A stretch of 64,000 nt of DNA from an uncultured bacterium (GCA_965368975.1 CBDUPA010000009.1:32001-96000), one strand, 5' to 3'. Positions 20,071 through 33,750 are shown, counted from the first letter of the stretch. The notes: generated by a model not told the origin, from the letters alone. A program made the numbers and translations.

Positions 20071-21267
20071 TCAGTCGTAGCGGAGCTTGCGCGCACCGAG
20101 CAAGGTGCTCGCGAACCCGAAGCCCAACAGTACCAGGGAAGGCAGCCAGACGGCCTCCCAACCTCGGCCGAACGAGATCAGCGCGTGAAACGCGTTCATG
20201 GCCCAGGCGGTCGGGAAAGCGAAGGCAGCTGTCTGTAGCCACTGGGGCATGATCTCCGACGGCCACCAGCAACCACCCAGAGAACCGAGGATCATGCTCA
20301 GGATCCAGCCGACGCTCGACGCCTGCTCGGCCGTCGAAACCGTCGCGCCAAGGAGCAGCGACAGCCCCGCCACGGCGAGCGCATAGGAGAACAGCACTGT
20401 GACCAACGCTCCGGGATGACTACCCCAGCTGACGCCGAACAGCACGCTTCCGACGACCAGCAGCAGCACGATCTGCGCCGCCGCGATCAGCAGGCGGCCA
20501 CCGAGCTTGCCGAGCAACAGTTCCGACGGACGCAACGGTAGGGTCGCCTGGCGCTTGAGCATGCCCTGCTGGCGCTCTTTGGTGAGGAAGATGGCCCCGT
20601 AGATCAGCGTCATCATCAGCACAATGAACGTCAGCGTCCCCGGGACGCTCTGGGCTGTACCTTGCGGCACGGGCTGGCCGCGACCGGCGTCGGAAGCCTC
20701 GACCACCACCTTGGGCGGGCGCTCGGCCAACAACGAATAGGCTTCCGGTGTCATGCGAGCGTTGACATCTTCGCCTTCGGGTGTCGTCGAGGCCAGCTCT
20801 GCCATGCGTGACACCAGGCGCACCGAGGCACGGAAGATCACGGCTTGGGCCGCCAGCGTAAACGTCGGGTTGGCCTCCGTCTCGGCCTCGAGGCGCAGCG
20901 TCTGTTGCTCACCGGCCAGGGCTCCGGCGGTGAAGCCGGCGGGAATGATCAGCACGCGCGGCGCGGCATCCTCGCCGTCGAGCGCCGGCTGAGACCCGAC
21001 CTCCTCGAGCCGGACGTGCTCGACAGTAAGCTCGTCAACCAACGACCGGGCCAGCCAACCGCCGTCCTGGTCCTCGACTGCCAGCGCGATCTGGGGCTGC
21101 TGCGTGCTGCTCGAACCGGTGTGACCAAACAGCCACATGAAGGCCACCGGCAGCAGCAGCATCCAGATGATCGAAGCGCGGTCCCTGAGGGTCAACCTCA
21201 AGTCCTGCATCGCCATCCTACCGACACGAGAGAGCGACGCCTTCCAGCCACCCGGCCGCCCCATCAT
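20071..21267 (-). CDS. ABC-2 exporter permease
   Basis: TM, large loop, 5 TM; KERQQGMLKR and LGGCWWP motifs. Confidence 0.88.
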   Translation of the reverse strand: MMGRPGGWKASLSRVGRMAMQDLRLTLRDRASIIWMLLLPVAFMWLFGHTGSSSTQQPQIALAVEDQDGGWLARSLVDELTVEHVRLEEVGSQPALDGEDAAPRVLIIPAGFTAGALAGEQQTLRLEAETEANPTFTLAAQAVIFRASVRLVSRMAELASTTPEGEDVNARMTPEAYSLLAERPPKVVVEASDAGRGQPVPQGTAQSVPGTLTFIVLMMTLIYGAIFLTKERQQGMLKRQATLPLRPSELLLGKLGGRLLIAAAQIVLLLVVGSVLFGVSWGSHPGALVTVLFSYALAVAGLSLLLGATVSTAEQASSVGWILSMILGSLGGCWWPSEIMPQWLQTAAFAFPTAWAMNAFHALISFGRGWEAVWLPSLVLLGFGFASTLLGARKLRYD

Positions 21268-22538
21268 ACCGAGACTCCTTGACGGAGATGGCGGTGAAGC
21301 CGCGACGCACCAAGGGTCAGCGACAGCGCGCCAATCAGCGCCAGCACCAGCGCGTTGGGTGCGATATCGAGCATACCGCCGCCGGTGAGCAGCGAGACAT
21401 AACCGTCAGTGCCCCAGTAGAAAGGTGACAGCGGCGATATCTGGCGCAGCAGCGGCGGCAGGCCGTTGAGCGGAATGAAGCTACCGCCAGTGAAGGCCAT
21501 CACCAGGAAGATCACTGAACCGGCAGTACCCGCGCGCCCTTCGTCCGGCGCCAGACCGTAGAGCAAGGCCGCGACGCCGGTCACGCAGAGGATCAAGGTC
21601 GCCGACAGTAGCAGTGCGGCCAGCGGATCGCCCGTGCCCGCTCCCTGGACCCAGGCGATGATGCTGATCACCAGCAGGCAGCCGGTGGCGACCACCGCGG
21701 TGACCGCCACCTTGGAGGCGACGACGGTCGACAGGGTCACGGGACCCGCCAGCTGGCGCTGCAGGGTGCCTTGCTTCAACTCGGTGATCAGGTCGCGCAT
21801 GCACAACTCTCCGATCATGAACAGAGAGAAGACGGTGACTCCGGGCAGGATGAAGAGGAAGATCGAGTCGGTGCCATCACCGCTGTCGCCGTCTTCCTCG
21901 GCATCCGGCGTCGACGCTTCGAGCGTGATCACCGGCGGAAGGATGTAGGGCGAACCGGCCTGGATCAACCGATGGCTGCTCACCGCCACCGCTGCCACCG
22001 CGGCGGCGGTGGGGGCCTCTTCGGTGTCGAGGAAGGGCCGCAGTTCAGTGAGCGGTTCACTCAGGACGTAGGAGCCGGCGCTCAGGATTTCGGCCAACAC
22101 GCTAGTGATCTCCTCGGCGACCCGGGGCAGAATGCTCTGCGCCGGGTTGCGCACTAGCTCCAGAACGAGTGGCAACTCCGTTCGCGCCTCCGGATGGACT
22201 AGCAAAGCGTCGGTCAGCTCCGGCGGCAGCACCAGAAGCGCCGACGCCTCCCCGGCCTCCATGCGTGTCCGGCCGTCCTCGACGCTCACTTCCTCGGCGT
22301 CGAAGTACTGGGCTGCCTCCTCGTTGGCGAAAGCACCCACGAGGAAGTCACCCAGGAAACCTTCGTCCTGGTTGGCAATCAGTAGCTGGACCTTCGGTAC
22401 TCGCTCACCATCTCCCCCGAAAGCCAGGGCGAGCACCCCGGCGTAGATGAGAGGGAAGAGCAAGAGGATCAGGGTGCCCAGGGGACTGCGCCGGCGGCGG
22501 CGCAGATCCTTGCCCAGCATGTTCAGGATGGTGTTCAT
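21264..22538 (-). CDS. ABC-2 exporter permease
   Basis: ELKQGTLQRQL, TGGSFIP, SPFYWG motifs; overlaps the next permease. Confidence 0.88.
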   Translation of the reverse strand: MNTILNMLGKDLRRRRRSPLGTLILLLFPLIYAGVLALAFGGDGERVPKVQLLIANQDEGFLGDFLVGAFANEEAAQYFDAEEVSVEDGRTRMEAGEASALLVLPPELTDALLVHPEARTELPLVLELVRNPAQSILPRVAEEITSVLAEILSAGSYVLSEPLTELRPFLDTEEAPTAAAVAAVAVSSHRLIQAGSPYILPPVITLEASTPDAEEDGDSGDGTDSIFLFILPGVTVFSLFMIGELCMRDLITELKQGTLQRQLAGPVTLSTVVASKVAVTAVVATGCLLVISIIAWVQGAGTGDPLAALLLSATLILCVTGVAALLYGLAPDEGRAGTAGSVIFLVMAFTGGSFIPLNGLPPLLRQISPLSPFYWGTDGYVSLLTGGGMLDIAPNALVLALIGALSLTLGASRLHRHLRQGVSV

Positions 22539-22568
22539 CTCAGGGCCCGCCGCCTCAGTCGCTCTCGC

Positions 22569-23498
22569 CTAGTCCCGAAGGGCACGGCCGGTGAGTTTCA
22601 GGAACAGCCCGTTGAGGCTCGGTGGCTCGATCGAGACGCTGTCGATCGGAATTCCTTGCTGGTAAATCACGCCCAGCAGTTCGGCGGCTCCCCGGCCTTC
22701 GCCCTCGGTGGCCAGCACCAAGCGCCCCTCCTCGGCGCTGATCAAGCGCACACCTGCCAGTGCTTCCAGCTTCTCGCGTGCCTTGTCGACGATGAAGCCA
22801 CCACGCAGGGTAACGACTTCCGCTTCCCCAACCATGTGCTGCAACTCCTCCAGCGTCCCTTCCGCGAGGATCCGCCCCTGGTCGATGATGCCGATGCGCT
22901 GGCACAGGCGCTCGGCCTCTTCCAGGTAGTGCGTGGTGTAGAGCACCGAAGTTCCGTTCTCAGCCACACGCTTGACCACGTCGAGCAGCTTCTCGCGCGC
23001 CTGCGGATCGATGCCGACAGTCGGCTCGTCCATGAGTACTGCTTGGGGCTGGTGGATAAGACCGAGGCTCAGGTTCAAGCGGCGCTTCATGCCACCCGAG
23101 AAGCCCTTCACCGGTTCTTTCGAGCGACCCGTCAGGCCCACCAGGTCGAGGGCTTCGTCGATCGCCTGACGCAGCTTGCGGCCACCGAGACCGTACATGC
23201 CACCCCAGAAGCGCAGATTCTCGCGTGCAGTCAATTCCTCGTAGATCGCCACTTCCTGCGGCACGACCCCCAGACGGCTCTTGAACAGGATGGGATCGGC
23301 AGCCAGGTCGACACCATCGAAGGTGATACGACCGGCGTCTGGAGCGAGCAGGCCGGCGATCATCGACATGGTGGTGGTTTTGCCCGCTCCGTTGGGGCCG
23401 AGCAATCCGTAGATCTCGCCGCTCCGTACCTCGAATGACACACCGTCGACGGCACGGATCTCGCCGAAGCGCTTTGCCAGGTCTTCCGCCCGGATCAT
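22569..23498 (-). CDS. ABC exporter ATP-binding subunit (DrrA/LnrL-like)
   Basis: GPNGAGKT, FSGGMKRR, LMDEPTVGIDP, TTHYLEE motifs. Confidence 0.93.
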   Translation of the reverse strand: MIRAEDLAKRFGEIRAVDGVSFEVRSGEIYGLLGPNGAGKTTTMSMIAGLLAPDAGRITFDGVDLAADPILFKSRLGVVPQEVAIYEELTARENLRFWGGMYGLGGRKLRQAIDEALDLVGLTGRSKEPVKGFSGGMKRRLNLSLGLIHQPQAVLMDEPTVGIDPQAREKLLDVVKRVAENGTSVLYTTHYLEEAERLCQRIGIIDQGRILAEGTLEELQHMVGEAEVVTLRGGFIVDKAREKLEALAGVRLISAEEGRLVLATEGEGRGAAELLGVIYQQGIPIDSVSIEPPSLNGLFLKLTGRALRD

Positions 23499-25340: not shown

Positions 25341-26954
25341 ATGAGAAAGCAAGCTATTGCCGCCTGGGCGGACCTAGGCGACCGCACGCCGACCTACGCG
25401 CTGGTAGAGAACGTCGACCTGGTGATCATCCGCTACGGAGACGACGTCTCGGTCCTTTACGGCCGCTGCCACCACCGCGGCGCCCTGCTGGCGGATGGCC
25501 ACATCGACGGCCATAACCTGATCTGCGGTGTGCATGGCTGGGACTACCGCTACGACACCGGCATCAGCGAGTACAACAACGATGAACAGCTGCACAAGTT
25601 CAACGCCTGGGTCGAAGACGGCCAGGTCTACATTGACGCCGACGAGATCGCAGCCTGGGAAAGGGACAACCCGCAGCCTTACGACCGTGAGTCCTACCAG
25701 GGCACCTACGCGGACGTCCACGGCGCGCCCGAAGAGCCGCACACCAAGCTGATCCAGGAGCTGGCGACCCACGGTCTCGACAAACTCGGACACCATGGCC
25801 CAGTGAACGCCATGGGCGTAGCGCGCCAGCAGCTGCCGAACTGGGACGACCTACAATTCGTGACCGCCCAGCTTTACAAAGTGCCGCAGCTGGATGATGT
25901 CGAGGTGGACACAGACCTGGTCATCGGACCGAGCAGCGCCAAGCCGCTGAGACTCGACATTCCGATCTTCGTCTCGGACATGAGCTTCGGCGCGCTGTCG
26001 GAGGAAAGCAAGATAGCGCTGGCACAAGGGGCTCAACTCGCTGGCACCGGGATTTGCAGCGGTGAGGGAGGCATGCTGCCCGAGGAACAGCAGGCCAACA
26101 GTCGCTATTTCTACGAACTCGCTTCCGCGCGCTTCGGCTTCTCCTGGGACAAGGTCAAGCAGTGCCAGGCCTTTCACTTCAAGGGCGGCCAGGGCGCCAA
26201 GACCGGCACCGGCGGCCACCTGCCGGGCGAGAAGGTGCAGGGCAAGATCGCTGACGTACGCGGCCTCCAGCCCGGACAATCGGCGATCTCGCCGGCACGC
26301 TTCCCGGACTGGGACAACGTCGAGGCCTTCCGCGAGTTCGCCGGCCAGGTGCGCGACGCCACCGGCGGCATTCCGGTCGGCTTCAAGTTGTCGGCGCAGC
26401 ACATCGAGAAGGATATCGACGCCGCCCTGCACGCTGACGCCGATTACGTCATTCTCGACGGTCGCGGTGGTGGTACCGGCGCGGCACCCTTGATCTTCCG
26501 CGACAACATCTCGGTCCCCACGATCCCAGCACTGGCGCGCGCACGCCGTCATCTCGATCGCCAGGGACGCAGCGAGGTCACGCTGATCATCACGGGCGGT
26601 CTGCGCACGCCGGCAGACTTCGCCAAAGCCTTGGCCCTCGGCGCCGACGGCATCGCCGTCTCCAACGCCGCGATCCAGGCCATTGGCTGCCTCGGCATGC
26701 GTGCCTGCCACACCAACAACTGCCCTGTGGGTATCGCGACGCAGAAGCCGCACCTTCGCCAACGCCTGGTGATCCAGCCCGCCGCGGAGCGCTTGGCCCG
26801 CTTCTTCGGCGCCGCGGTGGAGATCATGAAGCTGATGGCCCGTGCCTGTGGTCACACCCACCTGAGCCAGCTCTGTCCCGACGATCTGACCACCTTCGAT
26901 CGCGACATGGCCTACCTGTCCGGCGTCGCCTATGCGGGCGTCGTGCCCGTCTGA
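25341..26954 (+). CDS. Rieske [2Fe-2S] fused to FMN-binding glutamate-synthase-family protein
   Basis: CHHRG...CGVHGW Rieske ligands; MSFGALS, SGEGG, GQGAKTGTGGHL, GGTGA; CLGMRACHTNNCP Fe-S motif; no glutamine amidotransferase domain. Confidence 0.9.
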   Translation: MRKQAIAAWADLGDRTPTYALVENVDLVIIRYGDDVSVLYGRCHHRGALLADGHIDGHNLICGVHGWDYRYDTGISEYNNDEQLHKFNAWVEDGQVYIDADEIAAWERDNPQPYDRESYQGTYADVHGAPEEPHTKLIQELATHGLDKLGHHGPVNAMGVARQQLPNWDDLQFVTAQLYKVPQLDDVEVDTDLVIGPSSAKPLRLDIPIFVSDMSFGALSEESKIALAQGAQLAGTGICSGEGGMLPEEQQANSRYFYELASARFGFSWDKVKQCQAFHFKGGQGAKTGTGGHLPGEKVQGKIADVRGLQPGQSAISPARFPDWDNVEAFREFAGQVRDATGGIPVGFKLSAQHIEKDIDAALHADADYVILDGRGGGTGAAPLIFRDNISVPTIPALARARRHLDRQGRSEVTLIITGGLRTPADFAKALALGADGIAVSNAAIQAIGCLGMRACHTNNCPVGIATQKPHLRQRLVIQPAAERLARFFGAAVEIMKLMARACGHTHLSQLCPDDLTTFDRDMAYLSGVAYAGVVPV

Positions 26955-27004
26955 GCATGAAGCCCCTCTAGGTAGAGACAACGGAAACCAAGGAGCCTGC
27001 AAAC

Positions 27005-28966
27005 ATGAGCGACAACACCCACCTGATCTGGCACCGCGTGGCAGGTCTCAACGAGCTGCCCGAAGGCCGGGTCAAGACAGTTACCGTGGGCAAAGAGAGC
27101 ATCGCGCTGACCCACCATGACGGCCAGTATGGCGCGCTCGAGAACGCCTGCCCGCACCAGGGCGGCCCCCTCGGTGAGGGTTCGATCGAGAACGGCTACC
27201 TGCGCTGCCCCTGGCACGGCTGGGACTACTGCCCACTCTCCGGCAAACCACCAGGAGGGTACGACGACGGAGTGCGCACCTTCCCGGTGGAGGTGCGCAG
27301 CGACGGCATCTACATCGCGCTCGAAGCCGAGGAGCCGGAAACGCGCACCGTGTCGGACGTCATGGCCGAGACCATGGTCAACTGGGGGGTGAAGCATGTC
27401 TTCGGCATGGTTGGCCACTCCAACCTCGGTCTTGCCGACGCACTGCGCCGACGCGAGGAGGCCGGCGACCTGACCTTCATCGGCATCCGCCACGAAGGCG
27501 CGGCCGCCTTCGCCTGCTCGGCCTACGCCAAACTGACCGGCAAGCCCGCCGCCTGCCTGGCGATTGCCGGCCCCGGCGCCACCAACCTGCTCACCGGCTT
27601 GTGGGACGCCAAGGTCGACCGCGCGCCTGTGCTGGCGCTCACCGGCCAAGTCAACACGCAGGTGCTCGGCCCCGGTGCCTTCCAGGAGCTCGACCTGGCC
27701 GCCGCCTTCGCTCCGGTCGCCGGCTGGAGCCAGACCGTGCTGTCGAGCTCGAAGCACGCTGAACTCATGAACCTGGCCCTCAAGCACGCCGTCCAGTACC
27801 GTGAAGTCGGACACCTGATCTTCCCGGACGAGGTGCAGGAGATCGAGGTAGGCAGCATCGACGATGGTGGCCCAGAGGCTTCCGGCCCGGAAGGCCGGCT
27901 TACGCCTACCGACATCACCCCACCACCCACGGCCCTGGGGGCAGCAGTCGAGAGGCTACGCAGCGCCCAGCGACCAGTGATCATCGTTGGCCACGGTGCT
28001 CGCGACGGCATGGACGAGGTCACCAAGCTCGCCGAGCACCTGCGCTGCCCGGTGCTCACCACCTTCAAAGGCAAGGGCCTGATCTCCGACTTCCATCCGA
28101 ACGGTTGTGGTGTGCTCGGACGCAGCGGCACCCCGATCGCCAGCTGGTTCATGAATGAATGCGACACGCTGCTGGTATTCGGCGCCTCGTTCTCCAACCA
28201 CACCGGCATCACACCCAAGAAACCGATCATCCAGGTGGACTTCGATCCATGGCAGCTCGGCCGTGTCCATGCCGTCGACGTGCCGGTGCTGGGCGATATC
28301 GCAGTCACCGCGCGCCTGTTGCGCGAGGCACTGCACGACGCCAACCCAACGGACCAGACTCCGGAGATCACCGAACGCTGGAGGCTCTGGCGGGCCGAGA
28401 AGGCGAGTCGCCGGCAGGACGACCAGAGTCAGGGCTTGGGAGCAGCTACCATTTTCGAGACTCTGACCCACCTGACACCCGAGAACGCCGTCATCGCCGT
28501 CGATGTGGGAAACAACACCTATTCGTTCGGTCGCTACTTCGAGTGCAAGCAGCAGGCCGTCCTCATGTCAGGCTATCTGGGATCGATCGGCTTCGGCTAT
28601 TCGGGCGCCATGGGTGCCTGGGCGGCGGCAGGACATCAGCGGCCGATCATCGCGGTCACCGGCGACGGGGGCTTCGGTCAGTACCTGGCCGAGGTCACGA
28701 CGGCGGTCAAGTACGGCATGAACCTGACGCACATCCTGCTCAACAATTCCGAGCTAGGCAAAATCTCCAAGGAACAGCGGGGAGGACGCTTCGAAGTCTG
28801 GCAAACCTCGCTACACAACCCGAATTTCGCAGAGTACGTGAGCAACTGCGGCGGCCTCGGAATCCGGGTTTCCAAGGTCGAAGAACTCGAACCGGCGATC
28901 CGGCGAGCCCTGGCGTACGATGGGCCGGCGACGGTCGAGGTGCTGCAGAACGTCGAGTTGCTGTGA
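27005..28966 (+). CDS. Rieske [2Fe-2S] fused to TPP-dependent enzyme (pyruvate oxidase/ALS family)
   Basis: CPHQG...CPWHGW; IRHEGAAAF; GPGATN; GDGGFG...LNN TPP motif. Confidence 0.9.
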   Translation: MSDNTHLIWHRVAGLNELPEGRVKTVTVGKESIALTHHDGQYGALENACPHQGGPLGEGSIENGYLRCPWHGWDYCPLSGKPPGGYDDGVRTFPVEVRSDGIYIALEAEEPETRTVSDVMAETMVNWGVKHVFGMVGHSNLGLADALRRREEAGDLTFIGIRHEGAAAFACSAYAKLTGKPAACLAIAGPGATNLLTGLWDAKVDRAPVLALTGQVNTQVLGPGAFQELDLAAAFAPVAGWSQTVLSSSKHAELMNLALKHAVQYREVGHLIFPDEVQEIEVGSIDDGGPEASGPEGRLTPTDITPPPTALGAAVERLRSAQRPVIIVGHGARDGMDEVTKLAEHLRCPVLTTFKGKGLISDFHPNGCGVLGRSGTPIASWFMNECDTLLVFGASFSNHTGITPKKPIIQVDFDPWQLGRVHAVDVPVLGDIAVTARLLREALHDANPTDQTPEITERWRLWRAEKASRRQDDQSQGLGAATIFETLTHLTPENAVIAVDVGNNTYSFGRYFECKQQAVLMSGYLGSIGFGYSGAMGAWAAAGHQRPIIAVTGDGGFGQYLAEVTTAVKYGMNLTHILLNNSELGKISKEQRGGRFEVWQTSLHNPNFAEYVSNCGGLGIRVSKVEELEPAIRRALAYDGPATVEVLQNVELL

Positions 28967-29064
28967 CGTCGAACGTCCCTGCTATGCTCGACCGGTAACT
29001 ACCCGTTGTCAGTGCCTTTCCCGAGAGGGTGGCCGTCCAGATGAGACCTAGAGGAGCCTACGCC

Positions 29065-29403
29065 ATGACCGACCGTGTCCGGAACCTTGTCCAGTTCGCC
29101 GCCGTGCTGCTGATCGCCACCGCCTTTCTCACCGCCGCCCCCACGCTCTCGGCTGAGGACGAGCAGCCCGCTACCGCCGAGGTCACTTCGATTTTCAAGG
29201 TGACCGGCATGACGTGCACCAACTGCGAGGCATTGATCCGCAGCAACGTGCAGGCACTGGACGGCGTCAGCGCGGCGAGCGCGGACCACATGGCGGGAAC
29301 CGCCGAGGTGACCTACGATCCGGCGAAGGTGACGACGGAGCAGGTCATCCAGGCGATCACGAACGCTGGTTACGGCGCGGAGTTGCTGGAGACCAAGGAG
29401 TAG
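29065..29403 (+). CDS. Exported heavy-metal-associated (MerP/CopZ-like) protein
   Basis: Signal peptide; VTGMTCTNC metal motif; AGY near the C-terminus; GAGGAG RBS. Confidence 0.88.
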   Translation: MTDRVRNLVQFAAVLLIATAFLTAAPTLSAEDEQPATAEVTSIFKVTGMTCTNCEALIRSNVQALDGVSAASADHMAGTAEVTYDPAKVTTEQVIQAITNAGYGAELLETKE

Positions 29404-29523
29404 GGCCCCACGCGCTCGCTACAGGCCGCTGATCACAGGCCGCTGGCCAGAGATTGGGCGCTCGTTCTGCTCTCTGGTTTATACTCGGCGGATCTATCCA
29501 CAATTCGTTGGGAGGAAGTACCG

Positions 29524-29727
29524 ATGAAAAAGCGGAGAAAGCTGCAGCTCAGCCGTGAGACCCTGCACACGATGGATTTGCGCACGGCGCAGGGCGGTGA
29601 CGTGATCCAAGCGACCGTTCAGGCCACCACGATCATCATCAAAGAGACGATCGAAATCGCCGTCCGGTCCGAAGAGGGGTGCCCGACCTACTCTTGCTGC
29701 TGCCTGACTTGCCCCCCCTGTCCCTGA
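29524..29727 (+). CDS. Small Cys-rich peptide, putative RiPP (lanthipeptide-like) precursor with GG leader
   Basis: GGAGGA RBS at 29511, TATACT at 29480; leader MKKRRKLQLSRETL...AQGG; core ends CPTYSCCCLTCPPCP; downstream hairpin plus T run. Confidence 0.72.
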   Translation: MKKRRKLQLSRETLHTMDLRTAQGGDVIQATVQATTIIIKETIEIAVRSEEGCPTYSCCCLTCPPCP

Positions 29728-29752
29728 GGCTCATCGCCGCCTCCGAGCCCTG

Positions 29753-29771
29753 AAGCGGCCCAGCCGCTTTT
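29753..29771 (+). terminator. Hairpin/terminator after the peptide gene
   Basis: AAGCGGC-CCA-GCCGCTT then TT; lies between convergent genes. Confidence 0.5.
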
Positions 29772-29823
29772 AGAGTTCGTAGGCGGCCCAACCGACTTAT
29801 AGCTCGTAGGCGGCCCAGCCGCC
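29770..29823 (-). repeat. 27-bp tandem duplication of the kinase 3' end
   Basis: On the minus strand GGCGGCTGGGCCGCCTACGAGCTATAA is followed directly by GTCGGTTGGGCCGCCTACGAACTCTAA. Confidence 0.85.
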
Positions 29824-32800
29824 GGGGGCCAACACATTGGCCATCAGGTCGGTGCGTTTGATGCTCTGGCTGGCGATCCACTCATCGGCCTGTCGCATCA
29901 GGTCCTTGCCGCGCGAGCCCCGCAGCTGGCCGAGGCGGCGGCGGGCGGCGGCAGCGTAGAGGCGCATGTCGTGCTTCTCGAGCCCCTCGATCGCCTGCTC
30001 CAGGAGCCCTTCCGCCTCTTCCTTCAGACCCTCCGTGGCACGAATGCCGGCCCGCAGGAGCAGCGCCAGCGGATCGGACCAGAAGAGCTTCTCGCTCTCG
30101 ATTTTCTTCAGGTCGCCCTGGACGACCTTGATCAGCTGCTTGTACTGCTCGGTGTCCAGACCGGCCTCAACAGCGGCGGCGAGCGCGCAGCGAGCGCGCA
30201 GGCACGAAGCCTCGGTGCGCGTGAACTGGATACGCAGCAGCATCGACTCTTGTAGACCACCCCACAATTCCTGCAGCCGCCGCCAGGCTTCCAGGCCACC
30301 GGCCGAGTACATGGCGATCTCGACCATGCCCGTCATGTGCCAGTAGTGTTGCAGGTGGAAGCCCTGCTGCGACCAGCGACTGATCGACTGCTCGACTTCC
30401 TCTTCCGCCAGCTTCGGCTCGTCGTTGACCAGCCAGGCGACCCAGGTGACGCGGCTGCGCAGGTTGGTTTCGGCGTAGAGGTCACCACGCTCCTGCACAT
30501 CTTTGAGCAGCGACGGCAGGCGACGGCAGATCTCCCCGTACTCGCCGAGCAGCAGCAACGCTCGCAGCTGGAACTGCATCGTGGTGTCCAGCTCCCACGT
30601 GACGCCGGTGCAGCGCTCACGCAGGATCTCTTCGCCGTAATCCAGGCGCTCGACCGCCTTCTGCCAGTGACCTTCCAGATAGGCCGCCATGCCCGAGGTC
30701 ATGTGCGCGAGGCCGAGGGCATGCGGGTGGTTGACCTTCTGTGCCAGGCGCATCGACAAACGAATGAGATTCTCGGTGCGATCCAGCCCCTTGTTGCCGG
30801 AGGTCGCCGAGGCGATCGTCTCGATGCACAGGGCGCGCGCCACGCGGTACGGCTCGCCTGCCTTGAGTGACAGCAGCAGGTTACGCTTGCTGTAGTCCAT
30901 ACCGCGAATGGTGTCGACGATCGCCAGGCCGACGGACACGGACCAGCAGGTGTCGATCTGGATCAGCTTCTCAGCGGCGATCTGCGTCGAGTCGCGTTCC
31001 TTGAACTTGAGACCCCGGATCTTCAGGAAGGCGATGCTGCGTAGCAGCGACAGCAACGCCTGGCGCGGTGTCTCCGCCAGCTTCATGCCGATCGACTCGA
31101 GCACGTGACGGATGGTGGCCAGCCCCTTGTCGATGCGGCCGCTGATCAGCAGTTGCTCGGCGGCGCGGCGGCGCAGCTCCAGGGCGTCCGCGGCCATGCC
31201 ACCTTCGGCCGACAGCAGATAGGCCTGCGCTGCTTCGGCACCTCGGCCGGCGTTGGCCAGGGCATCCGCGAGCTTGATCTGCAGCTGCCGGTAGGCCTCA
31301 CCCTCGTCGACGGCGAGGTCGAGAGCGATGCGATAGAGACGGCTGGCGCGATCGAAAGCCAGGGCTTCGGCAGCCTGATCTGCCGCCTGCGCGGCAAACT
31401 CGGCGGCGCGGTCGCGCTGGCCTGCTTCTTCGAAGTGGATGGCCAGGACTTCAGGATCGACGTTTCCGGCTGCCTGCAGCGCTTGCGCCAGGCGCAAGTG
31501 ATAACGCTTGAGCAGGGCCGGCTCGAGCAGCTTCGGGACGATCTCGCGGATGCGGTCGTGGTAGCACTCGACTTGGTCGTCCTTGTGACTGCTGCCACGC
31601 AGACGGATCAGGTTGGCCGAACGCAGCGCAGCCAGGGCCGCCTGCACCTCCTCGACCTCTGCGGCTTGCTTGGCGACGTCCAGACTGACCGGCTGGCCAA
31701 TTACCGAAATGACTTCCAGCAGGCGCCGCGCTTCTTCTGGCAGGCGATCCAGGTGCGCCAGCATGACCTTCTCGATCGTCGCTTCGCCGACCGCGCGTTC
31801 GACGTCGCCGCTCACCGCCTCGTCGCCGGAGACAGTCTGTGCATACCGCACCAGCGTGTCGATCAGGAATGGGTTGCCGCCGGACTCGCGTACGATGGTC
31901 TCGGCCAGCGCTTCGGCGGCTGGCGAGTCGCTGCGTAGCAGTTGCAGCGTCAGACGCCGCGACTCCTCGGGCCCCAGCTCTTTGAGCACAACCTCCCGTA
32001 CTTCGATCGCCGCCTTGGTCAGCTCGGACGAGAAGAGACGCCGCAGCAGGGGGCTGGTGAGCGCCTCTTCACTGCGGAAGCACGCAAGCAGCATCAGTGC
32101 CGGCGGGTCCGGCGGTCGCAGCAGCTCATTGAGCAAAGACGCGCTATCCAGATCACCCCACTGTAGGTCGTCGATGTAGAGCACGACCGGATGGCGGTCG
32201 GTGAGGCGCAGAAAGAGTTCGCGCAGCGCGGCGAAAGCGCGGCGACGCAACTCGCGGGAGTCGGGAATCTCCAGCACCCTGCGCTTGGCGTTGGCTATCG
32301 CCTTGACGCGGCGTAGCACCGGGAACAGCCGCGCCAGTGCCAGTACGTTGTACGGCATCAGCACCTCGACTTCTTGTTCCGGCAGCTTGCGCAGATAGCG
32401 GCTGAGCGAGTCGACCAGGCTGTCCAGCGCCTTGTAGGGCACGGACTCACGCTGATAGCAGCGACCGGTCAAGACCACCACCTGGTTCTCGTACTGGTGG
32501 TAGACGTCGAGCAGGAAGCGGCGCACCAATGCGCTCTTTCCCATGCCCGACGACCCGTGGACAAAGACGGCCACCGTACGCCCCTTGCGCGCGGCGCGGA
32601 AGCTGTCCATCAGCTGCTCCATCTGATCCTCTCGGCCAACGAACGGCGCGGAGGTGACCGAAGAACTGGTAGACCGCACCAACGAGGCTGTCGACTCCTC
32701 GGAGCCCAGCCAGCGCAGGACGTCTTTGCCGGCGGGACGCTTTTCGGGATCGCGGTGCAAGAGCGCGCGACACAGCGTGTCGAGATCTTCCGGAATACTC

Positions 32801-33750
32801 GGTAGCAGCTCACGTGGCGGCGGCGGATCGACGCGCTGCTTGTCGGTCAGGATGCGCATGATGCTGCCGGTAAAGGGAATCTGGCCGGTCAACGCTTCGT
32901 AGAGCACCGCACCGACGCTGTACCAGTCCGACGCCTGCGAAATGTTCAACCCCGCGGCTTGCTCCGGTGACATGTAGGCGGGTGTGCCGACGATGTCCTC
33001 TTCGAGGCTCTCGTAGATCCGCTGCGCCATGATCTCGCGCACCAGGCCGAGATCGAGCAGAACGACGCGGCCCTCGTGCGTCGCGAGGACGTTCGAGGGC
33101 TTGATGTCGCAATGCAGCTTGCCGGTATCGTGGAGCGCCGTCAGGCCCTCCGCCAGTTGCCGCAGAGCCGTTCGCAGCATCGCCGGGTCGAACGGCAGGG
33201 CCCGGGGGAGAACAGGGGCGGAATCTCGGGCCGTACCCTCCGGGCTGGCAGCACGGGTCTTGGAACTCTCACCCTCGCTCGCAGCATCGGAGCCCCGTGG
33301 AGCAACCCCGACCGAGGTAGCGTCGCTGGTCGAGGCGGCGTCGTGGGCCAAAGTAAGGCCCTCATCTCGCAGCAGTCCCTGGTCGAGCAGGGTAGGTGCC
33401 TCGTCCGCCAACACGGAGACCAGTGGTTGGTCGTCACGCCGCCGGACCGCTTCGGTGAACGGCAGCCCCTTGACCAACTCCATGGTGAAGAACCAGCGGT
33501 CGCCGTCCGAGAGCAGCTCGTACAACTGCACCAAGTTGCGGTGGTTGACGTCACCCAGCGCGCGGAACTCTTTCTTGAAACGGTAGATCGCGGCCGGATC
33601 GACCTGATTCAGCGTCTTGAGCGCAACGATCGCCTTGCGCTCACGATCGTACGCCTCGTACACCGACCCCGAGGTACCGGAGCCGAGTTTGCGGCGCACG
33701 GAAAAGCGCTCCGTGCCCGCGAAGTCCTGCTGAAAGGGATTGTCGATCAA
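29797..33750 (-). CDS. Hanks-type Ser/Thr kinase / AAA(STAND) ATPase / TPR-like protein
   Basis: LGSGTSG, VALK, HCDIKPSN, LLDLG, GTPAYMSPE; Walker A GSSGMGKS; Walker B LYIDDLQW; GGNPF. Confidence 0.92.
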   Translation of the reverse strand: MIDNPFQQDFAGTERFSVRRKLGSGTSGSVYEAYDRERKAIVALKTLNQVDPAAIYRFKKEFRALGDVNHRNLVQLYELLSDGDRWFFTMELVKGLPFTEAVRRRDDQPLVSVLADEAPTLLDQGLLRDEGLTLAHDAASTSDATSVGVAPRGSDAASEGESSKTRAASPEGTARDSAPVLPRALPFDPAMLRTALRQLAEGLTALHDTGKLHCDIKPSNVLATHEGRVVLLDLGLVREIMAQRIYESLEEDIVGTPAYMSPEQAAGLNISQASDWYSVGAVLYEALTGQIPFTGSIMRILTDKQRVDPPPPRELLPSIPEDLDTLCRALLHRDPEKRPAGKDVLRWLGSEESTASLVRSTSSSVTSAPFVGREDQMEQLMDSFRAARKGRTVAVFVHGSSGMGKSALVRRFLLDVYHQYENQVVVLTGRCYQRESVPYKALDSLVDSLSRYLRKLPEQEVEVLMPYNVLALARLFPVLRRVKAIANAKRRVLEIPDSRELRRRAFAALRELFLRLTDRHPVVLYIDDLQWGDLDSASLLNELLRPPDPPALMLLACFRSEEALTSPLLRRLFSSELTKAAIEVREVVLKELGPEESRRLTLQLLRSDSPAAEALAETIVRESGGNPFLIDTLVRYAQTVSGDEAVSGDVERAVGEATIEKVMLAHLDRLPEEARRLLEVISVIGQPVSLDVAKQAAEVEEVQAALAALRSANLIRLRGSSHKDDQVECYHDRIREIVPKLLEPALLKRYHLRLAQALQAAGNVDPEVLAIHFEEAGQRDRAAEFAAQAADQAAEALAFDRASRLYRIALDLAVDEGEAYRQLQIKLADALANAGRGAEAAQAYLLSAEGGMAADALELRRRAAEQLLISGRIDKGLATIRHVLESIGMKLAETPRQALLSLLRSIAFLKIRGLKFKERDSTQIAAEKLIQIDTCWSVSVGLAIVDTIRGMDYSKRNLLLSLKAGEPYRVARALCIETIASATSGNKGLDRTENLIRLSMRLAQKVNHPHALGLAHMTSGMAAYLEGHWQKAVERLDYGEEILRERCTGVTWELDTTMQFQLRALLLLGEYGEICRRLPSLLKDVQERGDLYAETNLRSRVTWVAWLVNDEPKLAEEEVEQSISRWSQQGFHLQHYWHMTGMVEIAMYSAGGLEAWRRLQELWGGLQESMLLRIQFTRTEASCLRARCALAAAVEAGLDTEQYKQLIKVVQGDLKKIESEKLFWSDPLALLLRAGIRATEGLKEEAEGLLEQAIEGLEKHDMRLYAAAARRRLGQLRGSRGKDLMRQADEWIASQSIKRTDLMANVLAPGGWAAYEL

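Follow-up and report, generated by a model that had tools for sequence, protein, structure and literature searches.

The window, a stretch of 64,000 nucleotides (G000:C9:32001-96000) from a 7.13-Mb genome of 59 contigs and 65% GC, contains a 67-aa gene whose product we regard as probably an orphan, divergent class I lanthipeptide precursor of the L1a type, one that would be processed in trans and leave the cell once cut behind a double glycine. Taken singly, the gene adds a divergent orphan to a precursor family that is already known. What is unusual is the layout of one LanB and about 55 precursors; since these are dispersed and combine a conserved leader with hypervariable cores, the genome appears to run a system of one dehydratase and many substrates.

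The peptide gene and its surroundings comprise the following features.

29524-29727, plus strand: peptide ORF of 67 aa with an ATG start (sequence and ORF list).
29524-29598, plus strand: leader, residues 1-25, MKKRRKLQLSRETLHTMDLRTAQGG, with a double-glycine end (leave-one-out leader HMM, residues 1-28).
29599-29724, plus strand: core of 42 aa, a 27-aa Thr/Ile-rich, Cys-free part followed by CPTYSCCCLTCPPCP.
29725-29727, plus strand: TGA stop codon (sequence and ORF list).
29511-29516, plus strand: Shine-Dalgarno sequence GGAGGA, 7 nt ahead of the ATG.
29480-29485, plus strand: TATACT hexamer seen in the sequence, a putative -10 element.
29736-29787, no strand assigned: long hairpin in the gap between the peptide gene and the convergent kinase gene (fold z = -3.8, inverted repeat).
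29742-29821, no strand assigned: three tandem 27-28-nt direct repeats, the last copy being the 3' end of the kinase gene.
29029-29403, plus strand: neighbouring gene whose HMA-type metal-binding product has a hydrophobic segment at its N terminus (PF00403, E=2.8e-17).
29797-33750, minus strand: neighbouring, convergent gene for a 1317-aa Ser/Thr kinase and AAA_16 ATPase protein (PF00069, PF13191).

The leader and the 42-aa core with six Cys including a CCC run can be read directly from the ORF, just as the sequence-only reading had described them. The full core is DVIQATVQATTIIIKETIEIAVRSEEGCPTYSCCCLTCPPCP. Its CPTYSCCCLTCPPCP tail has 6 Cys, with the CCC run, and 8 Ser/Thr, and CPPC is also present among the clustered Cys. 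The ORF had been credited with its own expression signals as well. The 67-aa frame, the GGAGGA sequence and the hairpin hold up; the promoter comes down to the TATACT hexamer, since a consensus scan returned 0 sigma-70-type sites in 29000-30000. Downstream of the ORF lies a 19-nt inverted repeat (29736-29754 / 29769-29787), and the region 29725-29835 folds with -55.9 kcal/mol (z = -3.8), a value equalled by 0/200 shuffles. The consensus scan found no canonical T-rich terminator 3' of the ORF; the two terminator-like sites that it did report lie 5' of the ORF or, on the opposite strand, within it. The hairpin at 29736-29787 would likely serve as a bidirectional transcript end. The GC3 of the ORF is 0.81, compared with 0.74 for long ORFs and a leader-family mean of 0.76. 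Judged from its sequence, the ORF is a real gene, beyond chance. No Pfam or NCBIfam family matches the peptide at E<=1.

The peptide shares its leader with a large set of paralogues. A motif scan, then a leader HMM, was run over the 133,041 six-frame ORFs of the genome. Small ORFs with the leader MKKxxxKLxLxRETLxxLxxxxLxxAxGG and a short Cys-rich tail numbered 54 at E<1e-3 with the HMM, and 53-55 depending on the scan; leader paralogues of the kind that the sequence-only reading proposed to look for are thus abundant in this genome. They occupy 36 loci across 22 contigs, and some stand in tandem groups of 2-6. The 53 with identifiable starts (21 contigs) were taken into an alignment, in which L9 is invariant, M1, L7, T13 and L14 reach 90% conservation or more, and GGAG or GAGG stands at -20 to -4 in 50 of the 53. 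The cores are hypervariable, rich in Cys, Ser and Thr, and not alignable. Scored against a profile of the 52 other leaders, with the E-value computed against the same 133,041 ORFs, the peptide matches over residues 1-28 at E=6.6e-9 (38 bits); relative to its paralogues its leader carries a 3-residue deletion.

The family can be placed among described leaders. NCBIfam model NF038153 (lant_leader_L1a, class I lanthipeptide) is matched by 44/53 members at E<=1, the best at 1.2e-10; the peptide itself has no match to it at E<=1. A radical SAM-target RiPP model, TIGR04149, is weakly matched by 6/53, the peptide not among them. Passages of Walker et al. 2020 (PMC7268733) describe LxLxKx5L class I precursors from Bacteroidetes, many of which end in Gly-Gly and whose clusters often encode C39 proteases, and a section of PMC9680876 describes the viridisins VdsA1/A2, whose double-glycine leaders direct LanB/LanC modification; pinensin and Ped15.1/15.2 are cited in parts of both sources. 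The peptide reads L7-x-L9-x-R11-x5-M17, then G24-G25: compared with the published LxLxKx5L, the spacing and the Gly-Gly are kept, with R for K and M for L. Like L1a class I precursors, it has a short basic N-terminus, LxLx(K/R)x5(L/M) and a Gly-Gly end. By profile comparison, the leader is homologous to those of bona fide L1a members, and it is not a new type but that of the class I 'LxLxKx5L...GG' precursors of NF038153. The suggestion that it resembles a lanthipeptide leader was borne out, in that it matches a lanthipeptide leader family; the type appears to be class I (LanB/LanC) and not the class II type of the prochlorosins with which it had been compared. In a protein atlas the nearest clusters score 0.80-0.83, which makes them leads only; two of them carry PF28317 Lant_leader_dom.

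The cores, although not alignable, share a directional pattern. They consist of 12% Cys and 20% Ser+Thr. With Cys positions fixed in the shuffles, a Ser/Thr lies 2-5 residues N-terminal of a Cys in 143/185 cases against 110 +/- 6 expected, and 0/2000 shuffles reach the observed value; the same spacing on the C-terminal side shows no enrichment (104 vs 96, P=0.10). The result is unchanged without four close paralogues. This direction-specific spacing, Ser/Thr and then Cys, is, at the level of sequence pattern, that expected of thioether rings formed with a dehydro-residue upstream of the Cys. Cys counts are even in 25 members, odd in 27 and zero in 1; odd counts being as frequent as even ones, the family does not fit obligate disulfide pairing. 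Five of the six Cys of the peptide have a Ser/Thr 2-5 residues N-terminal. Candidate donors in its core are S24, T30, S32 and T37, with T6, T10, T11 and T17 further upstream. The 27-residue Cys-free N-terminal part of this core is unusual in the family.

Candidate enzymes lie outside the window, in other parts of the genome. That no LanB/C/M, YcaO or radical SAM gene is found in the window, as the sequence-only reading stated, agrees with the genome-wide searches, in which none of PF04738, PF14028, PF05147, PF13575, PF02624, TIGR04085, PF04055 and PF03412 had a match within C9:32001-96000. The remainder of the window's 14-48 kb consists of housekeeping and transport genes. The nearest Lant_dehydr_N match lies 57 kb from the peptide gene, a PF05147 search found no LanC on its contig, and the only LanB-like genes on that contig are four paralogues without the elimination domain, outside the window. 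There is one full-length LanB, a 1159-aa ORF with Lant_dehydr_N and Lant_dehydr_C (G000:C13:48.6-52.1 kb). Two leader-family precursors and a pair of LanC genes come after it on the same strand, with housekeeping genes on either side of the set. Two more pairs of a precursor and a LanC, at C13:186 kb and C1:561 kb, have no LanB nearby; provided that those loci work, this genome already depends on LanB acting in trans. For a split LanB at C12:117-121 kb, the leader HMM finds no family ORF within 48 kb, so this cassette would use another leader type. A LanB or LanC gene is found within 2 kb for only 4/54 members of the family, and the other 50/54 have no known maturase within that distance, so processing in trans would apply to nearly all of them. 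Three C39-peptidase ABC transporters (PF03412 matches in 762-812-aa frames) are present, none of them near the peptide gene. The search for lanthipeptide maturases and C39 transporters elsewhere in the genome therefore found both.

Further RiPP-type genes in the genome are one LanM, one YcaO and six rSAM-SPASM genes, together with one orphan copy, at C22, of the radical SAM C-methyltransferase TIGR03975; in the relative G030 a family member adjoins a TIGR03975 gene. A radical SAM gene beside the C10 paralogue was considered as a maturase and rejected, as it is the housekeeping gene for lipoyl synthase. PKS/NRPS genes, S9 and M12B peptidases, ABC ATPases and MacB-type permeases also recur beside family members, at 2-5 loci each, and no shared maturase stands out among these neighbours. 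The closest relatives of the LanB with named records are from Acidobacteria and Thermoanaerobaculia MAGs (44-55% identity), a Saprospiraceae MAG (36%) and Pedobacter (30%); the host genome appears Acidobacteriota-like, a label that leans on these LanB relatives.

The leader family tracks full-length LanB at genome level. Among 40 relatives, seven carry the family (38 ORFs in G011, 31 in G030, 23 in G039, 7 in G007, 3 in G020, and 1 each in G010 and G038), and all seven have a LanB (PF04738, E<=1e-105). The family occurs in 0/28 relatives of that sample without a LanB match at E<=1e-40, and is absent from 5/12 that have LanB. It was found in 0/5 genomes of the same taxonomic family. In a second sample of 150 genomes drawn evenly across the phylum, where at most the best 42 candidates per genome were scored, the family (E<=1e-6) is present in seven, again all with LanB (E<=1e-95), in 0/139 without such a LanB, and is absent from 4/11 with a strong LanB. 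Summed, full-length LanB is present in 14/14 family-bearing genomes and the family in 0/167 genomes without LanB, the two samples sharing at least 3 genomes and related genomes not being independent; over both samples, 9 genomes have a strong LanB and lack the family. Leader-positive genomes represent at least nine taxonomic families besides this one. G001 and G002 have LanM-sized LanC matches and 0 leader matches; since LanM-sized LanC proteins occur in relatives without the leader family, LanM is not the partner.

Copy number sets this genome apart. A typical leader-family genome has one or two precursors beside LanB (G061, G092, G128), and among the sampled genomes 23-55 dispersed copies occur only here and in a single sister family, at least three genomes of which have 23-38 leader-family ORFs, with one to three LanB matches each; among the matches listed for G011 and G039, none is on the LanB contig.

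A model of the complex between LanB(1-820) and the peptide scored 0.64, against 0.01 for the best control; the mark for this score is reached by 58/80 solved complexes and 2/110 mismatched pairs. The input alignments held 5 sequences for LanB and 53 for the peptide, and the runs gave at least 28% contact agreement and a partner pLDDT of at least 36. The predicted interface pairs peptide residues 6-19, the conserved motif, with LanB 244-314; the modelled fold of the peptide itself is poor. LanB-leader complexes have already been solved, so the pass may show likeness to these and not binding by this copy. Any L1a-type leader would probably pass the same test.

We propose that the leader-recognition region of the single full-length LanB on C13 binds leader residues ~6-19, KLQLSRETLHTMDL. 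The enzyme, drawing on glutamyl-tRNA as LanB proteins do, would then glutamylate and eliminate Ser/Thr of the 42-aa core. A stand-alone LanC cyclase, or spontaneous addition, would close thioether rings onto the six C-terminal Cys. A C39-peptidase ABC transporter would cut after Gly24-Gly25 and export the product. Binding, dehydration, cyclisation, cleavage and export, like any bioactivity of the peptide, are steps that we infer. The earlier suggestion of a trans-acting, possibly combinatorial RiPP system gains support from the paralogues, the distant maturases, the C39 transporters and the co-occurrence with LanB; because all four checks were positive, trans-action is the best reading. Several observations count against the peptide being such a precursor: (i) it misses NF038153, with R for K, M for L and a shortened leader; (ii) no maturase is encoded within 57 kb of its gene; (iii) the leader family is not exclusive to LanB, given the TIGR04149 matches and the TIGR03975 gene in G030; (iv) 9 strong-LanB genomes lack the family; and (v) half of the core is 27 residues without Cys, and orthologues are confined to near-identical strains.

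A near-identical copy of the ORF exists in another assembly, and the locus occurs in metagenome contigs from two studies. A search of 5.8 billion proteins returned a single match, 66/67 identical (99%), differing by A30V. Contigs of four runs from the two studies (sludge and soil) cover the locus. Between metagenome records of ~700 nt and the window there are 42-47 differences; among those listed, at least 3 fall inside the ORF, two synonymous and A30V. The repeat array 3' of the ORF varies in copy number between strains, 28 nt or 20 nt being missing in metagenome contigs. Sludge contigs keep the order HMA gene, peptide gene, kinase gene. Soil contigs diverge between 29408 and 29499, with the HMA-peptide intergenic sequence replaced. 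Searches for an orthologue of the core found none, either in 40 relatives, which gave leader-level matches only, or in 185,579 species represented by one genome each, and the core of the best relative is unrelated to that of the peptide (E=11).

The adjacent HMA and kinase genes look coincidental. A BLAST cluster had linked 10/36 loci to kinases; it was rejected, as generic kinase and repeat domains joined it. Counted directly, a kinase lies within 500 bp of 4/36 loci against 1.7 expected (P=0.09), which is not significant given the genome's 85 kinase ORFs. A class III/IV assignment (LanKC/LanL) was likewise set aside: the 1317-aa protein matches LanL/LanKC models over the kinase domain only, the remainder being an AAA_16 ATPase region and unassigned sequence, and it contains no LanC domain (PF05147).

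Three other accounts of the peptide have to be weighed. It might be an exported double-glycine peptide that LanB never touches, its core being unmodified, disulfide-bonded or modified by another enzyme such as a radical SAM protein. In the consensus of double-glycine leaders, positions -4, -7 and -12 are hydrophobic and position -8 is acidic. The peptide shares the GG site with class II bacteriocins and microcins, and the three C39 ABC transporters of the genome would suit such export. The distance of 57 kb to the nearest maturase, the 50/54 family ORFs without one within 2 kb, the even Cys count of 6 in this core and the failure to match NF038153 also fit, and a radical SAM route could draw on the 6/53 weak TIGR04149 matches and on the TIGR03975 enzyme, adjacent in G030 and an orphan at C22 here. 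Double-glycine bacteriocins, however, are unmodified or disulfide-bonded and usually encoded beside their transporter, whereas this family tracks LanB and has thioether-type spacing. The finding of LanB in 14/14 family-bearing genomes, and of the family in 0/167 genomes without LanB (in samples sharing at least 3 genomes), speaks against LanB-independent export. Disulfide peptides have no reason to place Ser/Thr before Cys in one direction, Cys counts in the family are odd as often as even, and the predicted leader contacts on LanB coincide with the conserved motif. On this evidence we consider export without LanB, the main rival, unlikely, though it retains some weight. It is improbable that the gene is a decaying or silent paralogue without a product of consequence. 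The divergent leader with its deletion, the miss against the curated model, the restriction of orthologues to near-identical strains and the lack of a consensus promoter would all suit decay, but the frame is intact, the Shine-Dalgarno sequence strong and GC3 typical of the genome at 0.81. Moreover, among the differences listed, the conservative A30V (the 66/67 copy) is the sole protein change in a strain whose flanks differ by ~9%, and the leader motif residues, the same ones that are modelled on LanB, are intact.

The sequence-only reading had itself offered a metallothionein-like peptide as its alternative, on account of the HMA gene. In its fuller form this would be a metallothionein- or chalkophore-like metal-binding peptide that partners the neighbouring HMA protein, with the cytoplasm as its place of action or, if exported, the periplasm. 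The peptide gene lies 120 nt downstream of the HMA gene and in the same orientation, the HMA product has a hydrophobic N-terminal segment, the six Cys are clustered in CCC and CPPC, and the gene order persists in the sludge-metagenome contigs. The adjacency is nonetheless peculiar to this locus: within 5 kb of any of 11 GMxCxxC-motif ORFs there is 1/53 family members, this peptide only. A search of 12 relatives gave no HMA orthologue at E<=1e-10, no other metal-resistance gene occurs in the 14-48 kb of the window, a terminator-like hairpin stands between the HMA and peptide genes, and the sequence between them is replaced in soil contigs. A cytoplasmic metallothionein would have no need of a GG-ending family leader, which is one for export and cleavage. 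The metallothionein idea thus drew little support, and we regard metal binding as very improbable.

As a probable class I lanthipeptide precursor, the peptide can be set beside two known systems. L1a systems and this genome have in common a Cys/Ser/Thr-rich core, separate LanB and LanC proteins and C39-type leader removal, the last presumed here; unlike published L1a members, the peptide misses NF038153 and is not beside a LanB or LanC. Published L1a cases, as the cited sections present them, have one to three precursors beside the enzymes, against a dispersed set of ~55 here. The prochlorosins, which depend on ProcM, resemble this family, according to passages in PMC7268733 and PMC10783134, in that hypervariable cores follow a conserved leader in many precursors, most of them encoded far from a single synthetase, and that the leader ends in a double glycine. 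As those passages describe them, they differ in their fused LanM, their long Nif11-type leaders and their cyanobacterial origin, where this genome offers separate LanB/LanC candidates and a short L1a leader. The LanM of this genome, unlike ProcM for the prochlorosins, does not track the leader family in relatives. A class I counterpart of the prochlorosins, here and in the sister family, is a tentative possibility, with the balance tipped slightly against it: one tolerant LanB would serve dozens of dispersed precursors, a few with a private LanC and the rest with shared LanCs or spontaneous cyclisation. Within this many-substrate set, the peptide has an unusual Thr/Ile-rich arm and a CCC/CPPC tail. 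We found no literature report of a class I system in which each LanB is matched by dozens of dispersed precursors; the supplementary tables of genome-mining studies might hold cases. The search range given in the relevant part of Walker et al. 2020 was seven genes either side of a LanC (PMC7268733).

If the layout is as proposed, cluster-based genome mining would miss most of the lanthipeptide repertoire of such genomes, here 50/54 precursors. Promiscuous lanthipeptide enzymes are in demand for building libraries of peptides constrained by rings; so far their main natural example has been ProcM, of class II. This LanB and its LanCs would then constitute a naturally promiscuous enzyme set of class I.

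The peptide gene (29524-29727, plus strand) lies in a neighbourhood whose other genes include a transporter and two Rieske-domain enzymes.

Features in the window
20074-23498, minus strand: ABC-2 type exporter, comprising a DrrA-like ATPase and two ABC-2 permeases
25341-28966: two consecutive enzymes with N-terminal Rieske domains, followed by the HMA gene

One Rieske enzyme (537 aa) joins its Rieske domain to a glutamate-synthase-like FMN domain and the other (653 aa) to a TPP pyruvate-oxidase-like enzyme. Transporters of the ABC-2 exporter class serve in lantibiotic immunity; the exporter here precedes the peptide gene by 6-9 kb, and no tie between the two was seen in this analysis.

Both flanks of the peptide gene vary among metagenome contigs. 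Between the HMA and peptide genes, soil-metagenome contigs carry unrelated sequence in place of 29408-29499, with loose ends at 29407 and 29500, and sludge contigs retain the segment with a 10-nt insertion at 29456. On the 3' side, a 27-28-nt unit is present in three tandem copies (29742-29821), the last of which forms the 3' end of the convergent kinase gene. The minus strand of the middle copy encodes GWAAYEL-stop a second time. Metagenome contigs lack either 28 nt or 20 nt of this array, thus the copy number differs among strains.

The remaining loci lie outside the window, those with contig numbers (C1, C9, C13, C22 and C27) in the source genome and L015 in its relative G030.

Features outside the window (L numbers are genome stretches with their own coordinates)
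L024:8320-11682, L050:8386-11445, L020:5713-7884 and L030:4763-7177: M12B/PKD-domain and S9 prolyl oligopeptidase neighbours of leader-family ORFs
C27, 37.5-40.3 kb (L053:8118-10799): leader-family ORF, then an asparagine-synthase-like gene and a small radical SAM gene, same strand
L015:1789-3204 (G030): TIGR03975 'RiPP maturation radical SAM C-methyltransferase', adjoining a leader-family ORF
C22, 23.9-25.7 kb: single TIGR03975 copy of the source genome
C13, 97-123 kb: two of three C39 ABC transporter genes, two rSAM-SPASM genes and small ORFs
C9, 118.5-128.8 kb (L059:6540-16817), minus strand: four tandem genes, 811-905 aa
C13, 186.2-187.7 kb: precursor and stand-alone LanC, LanB absent nearby
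C1, 561.3-562.9 kb: precursor and stand-alone LanC, LanB absent nearby

Four leader-family loci are directly adjoined by the large M12B/PKD-domain proteins and S9 enzymes, which are possible peptidases for the leader or the product. The C27 locus, 7 kb from the sole YcaO gene of the source genome, may represent another way in which leaders of this type are modified. C22, which holds the TIGR03975 enzyme, has no leader-family ORF. The small ORFs of the C13 transporter cluster have an acidic leader of another type (...AGG), and the cluster looks like a RiPP island of its own.

The four tandem C9 genes gave weak Lant_dehydr_N matches only, lack an elimination domain and match nothing in NCBIfam; we take their architecture to be reminiscent of small LanB or peptide-aminoacyl-tRNA-ligase-type enzymes. 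The precursor and LanC pairs on C13 and C1, having no LanB nearby, imply that LanB acts in trans.
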